Assembly: GCA_964016885.1 (NCBI GenBank)
Contig: OZ024741.1
Span: 336,040,001 to 336,104,000, forward strand
Direction: 5' to 3'
Source: Eledone cirrhosa
Taxonomy: Eukaryota
Length of the DNA stretch: 64,000 nucleotides
In this document: one piece after another, positions 3,160 through 40,629 of the stretch
Numbering within the stretch: position 1 is the first letter of the stretch
How the letters are laid out: each line of letters starts with the position of its first letter
Program-made: the position numbers and the translations under genes
The notes under the pieces: model-generated
The model's input: only the letters and a program-made list of their open reading frames with translations
Told to the model about the DNA's origin: nothing
Database searches by the model: none

Positions 3160-3307
3160 TTATTATGGCTAAGTAGTGAATCTTGTTACTTTGGAGTTAG
3201 TTTCACCTGTCCAATCACAGAATCATTACACAAGACTCTTGTCTGATGATTTTGTGAGTGTGCAACTGAAACTCCAGAGTAACAAGACTCACTACTCAGC
3301 TATAATA
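3160..3307. mobile_element. Fold-back element with hammerhead cores in both arms
   Basis: ~70-bp inverted arms centred at 3236. The + arm reads tcttgt-CTGATGA-...-GAAA-ctc ca gag-TA-acaaga (6-bp stem I, GUA site). The - arm is a decayed copy. Confidence 0.8.
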
Positions 3308-5889
3308 TATTTGCATGTAGAGAGCTATATAGGAGAGTATATGATTGCCAAATAGTTTTATACAAAGGTCAATGTGTTTATGTAGTTACAGATGGAAGAT
3401 ATGAGAGATATTCTTAACATAAAATATACAGAAAGATAGACGTAAATACAAAGAGGTTTTCTGTATATATTTTTATAGGTGTCATTGTTTGTGTTTCATA
3501 TACACCCACCAAACAGTTGGTGAGTGTATATGTTGTGTCCCCTTATATCTTATGATTTAGAATTTTGATGAATAAATATTAATAAAATAATTACTAAATT
3601 GAAATATGTACTGAGCTGGTTATCATTGTCTAAAGTCTTCAAGGTAGTACTGCTGCTGCTGTTGTTGGTGCTGCATCTTTTCAGTCCATTGATTGGAACA
3701 ACAATAACATCAAGAAAAAGAAAAACAATTTATGCTGAACAATTTTCCTGACCAAATAGATACATACATAAACATTCATTCATACATGCATACATACTTA
3801 CGTACTTACGTACATACATACATACATACATAAACATACATGCATAAACATATACATACATGCATACATAAACACATTCATACACATACATAGATACAAA
3901 TATACATATTCATAGGCATACATACGTACATAAACTTACATACACACGCATACACACACACACATATATATATATATATATATATATATATATATATATA
4001 TATATACATAAACTTACATATCCACACACACAAATATACAATAACCCATACTTACCTACGTAGACATATATACCTCCATGTTTAAGCAGGATCTTCTCTT
4101 GTACCGGAAATATGCATATTTTAGTAACATCATGCCAAATAACTGATATTCCTTGCAAAATGTGCACATGTTTAAGCATTACTTGATACACCAGAAGTAT
4201 GCATATTTTAGCATAATCATGCTAAACAACTTGTATTCCTGAGTGAATGTATACCCCCGCAGCATTATTATTAATTCTCATGTCATAAGTTTTATCCTTT
4301 TCCTCTTCTTTTCTTTCTTTCTATGTTGACTGGAAATGAAAATTGTTTCAGTTATAACCTTGTATACATACATACATGCACATATATATAATAAAACACA
4401 AGTGTCAAGTGAAAAACATTTGTGCTAGCTTTTGTGTAGAAAAAGGTATTTTGCTATTTTCCTTCCTACTACACACGCTTTCACAGTGTTAACGAGATTT
4501 TCTGTGGTCAAGCAACTGATATCTATATCTATGTACTTACCTTCCTATTTGTCTAGCTATCAATCTGTCCATTTATCTATCTATCTATCTATCTATCTAT
4601 CTATCTATCAATTCATCTCAGTCTAACCCTCTGTCTCTGTAAATCTACTATCTACATAAGTGTCTATCTACCTACATATGTTTATCTATCTATTTGCTGA
4701 CTTACTTCTCAGTCCATTAGTCTTACTGTCTATCTATTGTAGCTATTTATGTATATTTATTAGTCTATATATTCTTGGACAAGAACAACACTAACAACAT
4801 GAAAGCACAAATGCCAGTAATAGCTGTCTAAAGTTAATTAGATAGAACATAGTCATTGTGATTTAGTGCATATATGCTTCACCTTCGATAAAGGGATGAC
4901 TCACGAAGAAGAGAGAATTGCATATATGCTGAGAAATTGTTAGAAAGGCTCACTTTTAATGCTAAATATCCAACGGTTTCACCTCAAAACACAGAACATT
5001 TTGCATGATTCTCAACCAATCAGAAGACAACTTTTCTGTGGTTCGAATTTGTAGTAAATACTGCTCTAATTTGTAACATACGGTTTTCCCTGCATTAAAC
5101 ATTGTTCTCATACTTAGAACTTGGTTGTGGATCTGTTGTAGGACTTGGTTGTGGATTGAGACCGGGAGTCATCACATACTTAGGAACAGACAGAAAAACA
5201 CATCACTGGCATTGAGGTAGGAGTGATCTGACGATGATGTTCAGCAGTACAGAATTTCTGCCATAGCATTCAAACCTTCTGGGCATCATTGAATTGAGCC
5301 ATTTCACTCTTGACTTTGTACTTTTTGATGTAATGCCACTCACTTGACCAAATTGGCATTTAATGATTGAAATTAGAATGGCTTCTGTTACTGTAGTACT
5401 GGAATTTACTGCTAGTTGTTGAAGGTTCATCTTTTGTGTCAATGTTTCAATGAGCTTCAGTTGAACCTGTTAAAAAGTGTTCTGTTGTTGTTGGAGCAGG
5501 GGCTACCATTTGTTCAAAACTGATTGTCATTTTGGGTTCTCTCTCTGCTCAAAATGCTACCAAAGTTCTTGCTAGGCAACCAAAGAAGACTAGGCCCAAA
5601 TGTGCCAGATAGATGCAAGTCAGGAGAATGACTATTTGTTCTTCTGCTCTGTGTCTCTTCTTCTTTTTGGTCTTATTCTGTTTACTCCATCTTGTCTTTC
5701 TGTGGCACATTTTCTTGTCTGTGCCTATGTTTGTATGACTTGTGTTTGGCATGTGTATGTGTGTATGGCATGTGTACATGTGTCTTACATGTGGTGTTGA
5801 GGGGATTGTATATTATACGGTTTGTATCTGTGTCTTCCTTTGGTCCTATTCTGTCATCATTGTTAAGTTGTGGGGTGGGGATGTTACTA

Positions 5890-6065
5890 TTCCATTCAGG
5901 TTTTCTGTTGAGGTGCAGTCTAGTTTCTATTAAGTGTGAGGCCTCTGTAATTAGTCTGAGTTTTGTGTCCATTTTATGTGTGGGTAGGATCTTAAGTTCT
6001 ATGTTATCAATCGAGCCTCCATATTCTAGAACATGTGAGATAGAAAGATGTGAAGCTATGCCATA
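5890..6065 (-). mobile_element. Penelope-like element GIY-YIG endonuclease C-terminal remnant
   Basis: SHVLEYGGSIDNIELKIL...DTKLRLITEASHLIETRLHLNRKPEW fits the H...KIL...R.I.EA..I.....LNR pattern at the end of PLE endonucleases. It is flanked by (GA)n/(TA)n. Confidence 0.65.
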
Positions 6066-6346
6066 ACTGTATTCCTCTCTCTCTCTCTCTCTCACTCTCT
6101 CTCTTCTCTCTCTCTCTCTCTCTCTATATATATATATATATATATACACACACATTTATATATATATGTAATATACATTTATATATATATATATATTTAT
6201 ATTTAATATGCATATTTATAATATGAATAACTTTGATAGGTTTTGGCTAGTATTGGCCTAGGCCATGTCTAACTAGCACCACCAGGCAATATATATATAT
6301 ATATATTTAATATATAATATGCATGTATATATATATTTAATATATA

Positions 6347-6645
6347 ATCATCATCATCATCATCATCATCATCGTTTAACGTTCATCTTCCACACTTGCA
6401 TGGGTTTGGACGGGAGTTTTCAAACTTGAGGCAAGATTGGTTGTCCTGCTCGTATAGGACTGTCTGGCAGGTTTCCTATGGCTGGATGCCCTTCCTAACA
6501 CCAACCACGTTTACAGTGTGGACTGGGAGGTTTTTACCGTGTTACCTACACGGCCACATCACAGTGTGGACTGTGTATTTTTTTATTTTGTTGTGACACC
6601 TACACAACCTCATTTGTTTCGGACTGGATGTTGTGGTACCAACAA
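6347..6645 (-). mobile_element. RTE LINE 3' UTR fragment (family A-like)
   Basis: (tca)n tail plus the ggatgcccttcctaacaccaacc module shared with the RTE copies. Confidence 0.85.
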
Positions 6646-6734
6646 TAATAATATGCAAGTATATATATATTTAATATATATTTAATGATATGCATATATA
6701 TAAATATTTAATATATAATATGCATATATATATA

Positions 6735-39415: not shown

Positions 39416-39574
39416 CAGGGTCGTCTTAATGCATGGGCACGCTGGGCAGTTGCCTGGGGGCCCCACGAGGATAGGGGGACCATTTGTATTTTTATTCCTG
39501 TGAGTGGTTGTGTAGGTAGGGAGCCCAGTTCTCTGCTTTGCCCAGGGGCCTATAATGCTGTTAAGACGGCCCTG
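39416..39574. mobile_element. hAT-type MITE
   Basis: TIRs cagggtcgtcttaa / ttaagacggccctg. 8-bp TSD gatcttac / ggtcttac (7/8 match). Confidence 0.9.
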
Positions 39575-40087
39575 GGTCTTACTTATATGTAATTCATACT
39601 AACTGATTTTGACACTTAGATTTCTGAGTTCAAGATATTTTTGAGTTCAGCATTTACTAAAATTAGTACCTCTGTTACATTATACACTAGTATAGTGAAA
39701 CCTCTGTTATACTATACACTAATATATTTAAAGATATTTCATCAATTACATGATGGGAATCAAGTGTTGTATGCATTTATATTAACATCAATATATGATA
39801 TATATATATATATGTGTGTGTATGTGTGTGTATTCTTTATTAAGGCCAATGTATATATATATATATATATATACATACACACACACACACATATATGTGA
39901 GTGTGTGTGTGTAAGTGTAATCTTTATTAAGGTGAATATAAATATATATATATATATATATATATATATATATATATATATATATATATATATACACACA
40001 CATATGCACACACTTTCTTTCACTTACACACACATATATGTGTTGAACAATGGAAACAAAAATTGAAGTTTAGTACTTAATGAATTC

Positions 40088-40222
40088 ATTGTTTTACAAT
40101 CGTTTCAGAAGGTTGATTGACCATGATAAATCAATAAACTGATTAATTGATAATAGTTACATAACTCTATATTATTAGTCTCAATATGATAGATCCATCT
40201 CACTGTCTTCGTCAGAAACAAT
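40088..40222 (-). ncRNA. Type I hammerhead ribozyme with ~96-nt stem-II insertion
   Basis: attgttt-CTGACGA-AGA[96 nt]TCT-GAAAC gatt GTA-aaacaat gives a perfect 7-bp stem I, an intact core and a GUA site. Confidence 0.75.
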
Positions 40223-40362
40223 CTCTCTCACTCTCTCTCTCTCTCTCTCTCATATATATATATATATATATATATGCAAAAGTTCTATTTAAATTGTTGG
40301 GATACAACAAGCAAATATTTGTATAACTGATATAAAGCACTCAACAAGTATTTGGAGTAAAC

Positions 40363-40629
40363 ATACGATATTAACAAATGGAAACTATATTTATAAAACC
40401 ATATTTATTTCATTATACATATTTCAAGGACACCAAGTTAAATTATCTGGGAGCTTCCAACAGTAATGGTTGCATTTTTTAAGGGTATGTCAATATTTAT
40501 TTATAAAACTGATCTATATTATATTTTGTCTGATGAAAGCACACCATAATTTAACTTGGTGTCCTTGAAATATGTATAATGAAATAAATATGGTTTTATA
40601 AATATAGTTTCCATTTGTTAATATCGTAT
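40363..40629. mobile_element. Fold-back element with hammerhead cores
   Basis: ~83-bp perfect inverted arms. The + arm reads CTGATGA-AAG c ACACCA n10 TGGTGT c CTT-GAAA-TATGTA (40530-40576). Confidence 0.75.

Follow-up and report, generated by a model that had tools for sequence, protein, structure and literature searches.

Fold-backs in Eledone cirrhosa as likely inverted 3' ends of Penelope-like elements with a hammerhead motif

An inverted truncated neighbour combined with a one-ended tail is the standard form of a Penelope-like element (PLE) insertion (PMC8557442, PMC3846280). This form was encountered in seven palindromic fold-backs, labelled E1 to E7 in their order of occurrence, in a 64,000-nt stretch of the Eledone cirrhosa genome (assembly GCA_964016885.1, contig OZ024741.1, positions 336,040,001 to 336,104,000 of the forward strand), referred to below as the window. 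The original prediction, made from the sequence letters, had described them as elements with paired hammerhead ribozymes of opposite polarity. The analysis presented here indicates that each element is very probably composed of two 5'-truncated 3' ends of one repeat family placed head to head, a likely dead-end of a single PLE insertion with the hammerhead as a passenger. The view of E1-E7 as a new self-copying ribozyme RNA replicon fails: this is a known kind of feature, found in a new host and at an unusual scale. No report of it in cephalopods was found in the literature covered, with supplements and the PLE hammerhead variants of Lunse et al. lying outside that coverage.

E1-E7 share with insertions of endonuclease-bearing (EN+) PLEs of the Neptune/Nematis type (PMC8557442, PMC3846280) the 5' truncation, the head-to-head inverted copy, the one-ended tail, palindromes at the junctions, (TA)n targets, the order of reverse transcriptase (RT), Cys-rich linker and GIY-YIG, and a hammerhead in the pseudo-long terminal repeat. 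Unlike those insertions, the copies found here are mostly stubs of 130-430 nt devoid of open reading frames (ORFs), and their tails, situated in non-coding sequence, measure 20-160 nt as compared with 30-40 in the published cases.

According to Cervera and de la Pena 2014 (PMC4209133), Schistosoma has dual minimal hammerhead ribozymes on opposite strands at a distance of about 100-700 bp. The minimal PLE type I hammerheads of that paper and the motifs analysed here have in common an extra base after A9, a short palindromic helix III, a U3-A8 variant and the presence of many families in one genome. In contrast to them, a U4A core is fixed in E2 and E4 and a full helix III is present in E4 and E6, and the number of motifs extrapolated here exceeds both the 2,000-9,000 of PMC4209133 and the 126,247 of the axolotl (PMC7229834). 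The U4A hammerhead core was not mentioned in the literature covered, again with supplements and Lunse et al. outside it.

The non-LTR retrozymes (PMC7229834; bioRxiv 10.64898/2026.07.22.740005) are likewise non-coding, PLE-derived and equipped with a type I hammerhead. E1-E7 differ from them in being inverted and not tandem, so that a monomer flanked by two sense ribozymes is found on neither strand. The head-to-tail monomers of a retrozyme were seen only in an unrelated array at one of the loci taken from the genome (labelled L with a number), L168:8435-10000, where at least 4.3 copies of a 311-nt unit with 99% identity and one intact hammerhead per unit are headed by an inverted short arm. 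The array appears to be non-LTR retrozyme-like with a PLE-type fold-back head.

A further comparison is offered by twin priming of LINE-1, in which two nicks in the target prime on one RNA and give rise to a 5' inversion. The pieces produced by LINE-1 twin priming do not overlap; both arms of the present elements start at the 3' end and overlap, and therefore form a palindrome.

Window fold-backs and the hammerhead motif

All seven palindromes were recovered by self-BLAST of the window after masking of microsatellites, with arm identities of 74-86%, and each arm matched only itself and its partner within the window, in agreement with the claim that the seven families are mutually unrelated. 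The original prediction had left out a tail of 20-160 nt, present on exactly one arm of each element. The features are as follows.

3152..3310, both strands: E1 fold-back (palindrome 3158-3310, 78%), two truncated ends of the family that meet at helix I of the hammerhead
3243 (+) and 3229 (-): E1 cores, both arms damaged
3105..3151 (-): E1 tail, left arm only
12390..12577, both strands: E2 fold-back, 86% arm identity, G12A in the right arm and a mutated core in the left
12578..12738 (+): E2 tail, right arm only
12915..13343, both strands: E3 fold-back (palindrome 12920-13334, 86%), left arm extending ~50 nt further at the 5' end
13344..13372 (+): E3 tail, right arm only
30499..30640, both strands: E4 fold-back (palindrome 30499-30645, 82%), both arms damaged
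30641..30740 (+): E4 tail, on the right arm only and with a (TA)n interruption
32633..32768, both strands: E5 fold-back, 77% arm identity, a natural palindrome at the centre, hammerhead reading doubtful
32769..32810 (+): E5 tail, right arm only, partly deleted
33131..33273, both strands: E6 fold-back, 74% arm identity, centred on the 10-nt palindrome 33195-33204, both arms damaged
33050..33128 (-): E6 tail, left arm only
40363..40629, both strands: E7 fold-back (palindrome 40366-40626, 80%) of a young family; the right arm begins 86 nt before the core, at a truncation hotspot, and the left is cut within stem II
40271..40362 (-): E7 tail, left arm only
40522..40586 (+): the sole intact type I hammerhead among the 14 arms, in the E7 right arm (core 40530-40536, GAAA 40567-40570, predicted cut after 40578)
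34967..35148, both strands: eighth fold-back, detected by self-BLAST and absent from the original prediction

A hammerhead and a family link were both looked for in the eighth fold-back and neither was found. A weak ninth one was seen by self-BLAST at 40792-40878.

The claim of paired ribozymes of opposite polarity was not borne out, as none of the seven elements has two intact ones, which also sets them apart from ambisense viroid-like RNA. An intact core with helices I-III, as in the minimal type I hammerhead, is present in only 1 of the 14 arms. The E7 left arm is cut within stem II and has no core, and the 12 arms outside E7 show lesions in the core or stems or are deprived of helix I. A strict scan revealed 5 exact cores in the window as compared with 0-1 in ten Markov controls, and only that at 40530 lies within E1-E7; cores with one mismatch were in no excess (5 versus 2-13).

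The picture was different at the level of families, modelled from alignments of each arm to 10-101 further copies of its family. The E1 and E7 families have a CUGAUGA core. The core of the E3 and E6 families is of the U3-A8 kind, with helix I reduced to 1 bp in E3 and a 4-bp helix III and a GUC site in E6. The U4A core (CAGANGA) is present in most copies of two unrelated families, E2 (CAGACGA, with stems II and III present and helix I imperfect) and E4 (CAGAAGA, with a long helix III), and also in a young E4 subfamily of 95-98% identity. The E5 family has a U3/U8 core and GAAA in a minority of copies. The outward-reading plan that had been proposed for all elements, in accordance with a terminal-repeat hammerhead, thus stands for the majority of copies in families E1, E4, E6 and E7 and partly for E2 and E3, and is doubtful for E5. 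Judging from these alignments, the families have the hammerhead plan and the copies in the window have decayed from it, which is why all but one of the 14 window arms fail the type I descriptor.

The genome sample comprised 19 stretches, each of 10 kb and placed at round coordinates (190 kb), with the satellite stretch L173 (4 of 28 fold-backs) excluded. The type I descriptor found 26 intact motifs in this sample and 0, 0 and 1 in three local shuffles, so that the predicted enrichment over shuffled sequence was confirmed; an outward-reading hit was present in 6 of the 24 sampled fold-backs and an inward one in none. As a sequence motif, the hammerhead is genuine and polar and occurs genome-wide far above chance. 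Pairs of intact ribozymes on opposite strands do exist elsewhere in the sample (L166, L168, L172, L181).

These data bear on the suspicion that the hammerhead reading is nothing but pattern-matching in AT-rich palindromes. The degenerate cores of the window occur at control level, E3 and E5 fit the motif poorly, and Rfam was of no help: run on the window (E up to 5), it gave no hammerhead among the best 150 of 305 matches, nearly all of which were microsatellite-driven miRNA models, and at the gathering score it gave no match in 17 loci. The excess of 26 over 0-1 motifs and the outward-only polarity speak against pattern-matching, as do the core and GAAA columns, which are mostly conserved in 80-90% or more of copies, and the helices, wholly different between families and still able to pair. 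Such an explanation is extremely improbable overall, and for E1, E4, E6 and E7 it is refuted at the sequence level.

Another family with perfect minimal hammerhead cores was noticed on the minus strand at 2924-2998 (core 2972), 12201-12390 (core 12325) and 30253-30453 (core 30377). Its copies are single arms and not fold-backs, and adjoin E1, E2 and E4, respectively; ends of this kind cluster.

Links of the arms to PLE open reading frames

Each family was searched for in the 3.0-Gb genome, only the best 40 candidates per search being scored. The E7 search was based on a longer query, since an AT-rich query of 100 nt matched nothing, its own locus included. The copies of the families comprise single arms, fold-backs and long copies, all of which end at either of two fixed 3' points, short or tailed, usually against (TA)n. 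The optional one-ended tail past the fixed 3' end was observed in all seven families, and the inverted 5'-truncated neighbour, placed head to head, joins at variable points, as in EN+ PLE insertions.

Extension of the arms led to PLE ORFs in families E2, E3, E4 and E7, upstream of which an RT, a Cys-rich linker and, at the C terminus, a GIY-YIG domain were found. For E2, 9 of 27 distinct loci have an EN whose end lies 614-711 nt upstream of the arm. Of 20 E3 loci, 5 have an RT upstream and 3 an EN, and RT/EN are situated upstream of E7 in L137 and L145, with inverted pieces of the ORF in L144 and L149. An E4 sister subfamily has EN upstream in 8 of 15 loci, its arm lying ~930 nt downstream of an RT + GIY-YIG ORF. 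The earlier proposal of inverted products of many PLE families is supported as to the origin of the arms and corrected as to their polarity, as they meet 5' to 5' and not 3' to 3'.

The ORF fragments were also compared with the ESM Atlas, in which one fell into an RT-like cluster (0.95), with RVT_1 on 16% of the cluster members, and a second into a GIY-YIG-like cluster (0.95-0.97). Two matches from a PDB sequence search, with E values of 0.2 and 0.9, were not used. The Cys-rich linker is a mark of the Neptune and Nematis clades (PMC8557442), and its position before GIY-YIG suggests that the ORFs are of Neptune/Nematis type.

Several points weigh against the PLE reading of the arms. No match to Pfam was obtained for the 10 ORF fragments, and the PLE assignment is therefore based on visible motifs and the ESM Atlas. 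The ORF link of E4 was made only through the sister subfamily, which is 73% identical over 240 nt upstream. No ORF link was found upstream of E1, E5 and E6; these families appear tied to PLEs by anatomy only. For E1, the hunt for an ORF with an exact upstream pattern gave 4 loci with 27-53 nt in common and no ORF, and the copies seldom reach more than 30 nt above the ribozyme.

A C-terminal GIY-YIG-like fragment of another PLE family lies at 5685-6080 (-) of the window, its relatives being ORFs in L119, L150 and L181. Between E2 and E3, at 12787-12900, there is a small insert of another abundant family (an inverted tail and a short end), whose relatives form fold-backs in L162, L165 and L176. 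In long copies of E1 and E4 (L292-L295, L170, L181, L074) helix I directly follows a pyrimidine tract + YAG, and most copies are truncated at this point. In the Penelope of Drosophila virilis an intron ends at helix I, and the E1/E4 arrangement resembles it. A spliced short first exon for E1/E4, suggested by the acceptor-like tract before helix I, was dropped as unproven; the GAG recurring before E4 is arm overlap.

Tails, junctions and the mode of insertion

According to automatic calls, 96 of 106 fold-backs have one tailed and one short arm (7 have no tail and 3 have both); that the one-tail rule is counted here is a difference from the published PLE insertions (PMC8557442, PMC3846280). When the tail-anchored E1 sample was left aside, the one-tail rule held in 82 of 92 (p ~2e-15 versus 50%). 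Among single arms 38 of 97 are tailed.

The junctions mostly differ between the fold-backs of a family. They cluster at the 5' foot of the hammerhead in E1, E4 and E6 and at a site complementary to the hammerhead in E7. One E7 junction recurs in two subfamilies, in L118, L119 and L122 and in the subfamily copies L128 and L130, and of these five loci two have the tail on the long arm and three on the short one; the junction of the window E7 is repeated in L120 with the tail on the opposite arm, and the E1 loci L043 and L182 have the same junction and tails on opposite arms. The same junction with the tail on the other arm means that the copies arose independently. The E7 junction site is a truncation hotspot: 86 nt above the core lies a segment with complementarity to this core and to stem II. 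Recurrence of the centre junction had been put forward as the sign of a replicating unit; the junctions mostly differ, and the recurrent ones often swap the tail arm. The test itself needs refinement, since microhomology hotspots can repeat junctions without any copying of the unit.

In the window, the E7 segment in question (40444-40465) is complementary to the core region 40530-40550 and pairs with it in the predicted fold, and may constitute an off-switch.

Inverted truncated arms are also present in long copies: in 6 of 15 long E4 copies a short arm lies inverted upstream, at a different point in each of the six, and the long ORF-bearing copies L144 and L149 (E7) and L300-L303 have one as well. 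Whole fold-backs do not appear to be copied as units, three tests saying no: the one-tail rule, the varying or tail-swapped junctions and the inverted arms in long copies. The description of the elements as ambisense non-coding ribozyme units is likewise not supported, in view of the single arms and long ORF-bearing copies with the same ends, the variation of junctions and the frequent tail swap at recurring ones. Nor do the elements have the equal terminal inverted repeats and fixed junction of a miniature inverted-repeat transposable element (MITE) or fold-back DNA transposon; their ends are unequal, their junctions variable and single arms common.

It is nevertheless conceivable that some fold-backs, most plausibly E1, E5 and E6, for which no ORF was found, are non-autonomous units copied whole, either as a hairpin RNA with a ribozyme on each strand or as MITE-like DNA. 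Nearly all of the best 40 candidates obtained with the whole E1 palindrome were fold-backs of similar size, the E6 centres share one palindrome in 4 of 10 pairs, and the intact opposite-strand ribozyme pairs of L166, L168, L172 and L181 agree with this possibility. The tail-anchored E1 search told against it, as about half of the copies were single arms and the junctions were spread over ~70 nt. The opposite tail arms of L043 and L182, the two unequal ends, unlike terminal inverted repeats, and the ribozyme, predicted to be buried in the hairpin and not intact in 13 of the 14 window arms, make copying of whole units very unlikely.

The insertion of PLE ends from a single RNA can be related to the biochemistry of a PLE protein, whose in vitro activity includes cleavage of AT-rich DNA on both strands and reverse transcription of uncleaved RNA from two internal start sites, which correspond to the two genomic ends; the protein is predicted to form a dimer (PMC11167929). 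With such properties, the protein would nick an AT-rich or (TA)n target on both strands, and both nicks would prime reverse transcription on one uncleaved RNA, one from each internal start site, in a kind of twin priming. Both cDNAs would then halt early at the structured RNA of the ribozyme region, and their ends would be joined through short homology (microhomology) or a few added bases.

Support for a common template comes from subfamily variants, in which the two arms agree with each other in all 6 informative E7 elements; identical arms were found in 13 of 19 elements as compared with 26% of between-element pairs. Both arms are therefore derived from one template lineage. The same observation fits a different route from the same PLE origin, in which the inverted arm arises by self-priming, through snap-back of the cDNA or, following the proposal of Arkhipova et al. 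2013 (PMC3846280), on antisense RNA, and the ends are set later by endonuclease cuts. The junctions of E5, E6 and E7 at palindromes or self-complementary sites, and the palindromes reported at inverted junctions in PMC3846280, are also in line with self-priming. Simple snap-back predicts the tail on the arm reaching further 5'; the tail was on the 5'-longer arm about half the time, in 7 versus 11 cases for E7 (1 equal) and in 18 versus 14 for E1 (11 equal, 3 unclassed), and plain snap-back of the first cDNA is therefore ruled out. The agreement of the two PLE end points with the RT start sites in vitro (PMC11167929) also speaks against self-priming, which we consider unlikely, though by a good deal less so than the copying of whole units.

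Some observations count against insertion of both arms by twin priming from one RNA, or soften the evidence for it. The data accommodate both twin priming and antisense-RNA self-priming with staggered cutting (PMC3846280). Tails were called automatically, and for two E7 elements taken as tailed on both arms the scores are borderline and fall in (TA)n; a few partner arms in the fold-back calls may be unrelated neighbours. Whole-palindrome queries, of which only the best 40 candidates were scored, favour similar junctions, and the tail-swap test is blind for E5 and E6, whose centres recur at natural palindromes.

Any read-through transcript of an element would yield the antisense arm first, and the ribozyme would become locked in a long duplex. 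Folding of the full hairpins was predicted at -66 to -274 kcal/mol, compared with about -10 for the E7 ribozyme alone; since the hairpin is far more stable than the ribozyme fold and the antisense arm would be made first, cleavage seems unlikely. In these models the fold-back transcripts are more likely a substrate for editing or small RNAs than self-cleaving RNA. Four runs of contigs (kind unspecified) from one study show only that the searched family is abundant and varied.

Scale and surroundings

The sampled fold-backs cover 7.6 kb of the 190 kb (about 4%). A family with an intact ribozyme could be assigned to 11 of the 24, in two cases through a single match. Extrapolated to the genome, this small, clustered sample corresponds to 2.2-5.8 x 10^5 fold-backs and to 1.9-6.6 x 10^5 intact motifs.

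Among the species compared in PMC5625713, octopus was reported to rank first in the predicted fraction of long double-stranded RNA (dsRNA) and to be one of the two with the strongest hyper-editing signal, its repeats being left unanalysed. Self-folding stubs are an obvious candidate for the source of the octopus dsRNA subjected to editing. The young families supply many natural products of inverted insertion that obey a countable rule, one arm per start site and one template lineage, and the one-tail rule offers a clue to the mechanism of PLE inverted insertions. A more ambitious proposal, in which PLE stubs are the main source of octopus dsRNA and hyper-editing, the one-tail rule records twin priming from one RNA, and the U4A hammerheads are an undescribed active variant, is offered tentatively and is in its entirety rather doubtful.

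The window also contains a protocadherin ectodomain exon of 879 codons at 45256-47895 (+), and the intact E7 ribozyme is located 4.7 kb upstream of it on the same strand. RTE-like LINE ORF fragments and one of another LINE type are present at 7119-8716 (-), 17134-19131 (+) and 24966-25922 (+). Two SINE-like copies not of the hammerhead type, inverted, 319 nt in length and 92% identical, surround a long (TA)n at 50998-51982, and (TA)n tracts are abundant in the window as a whole.

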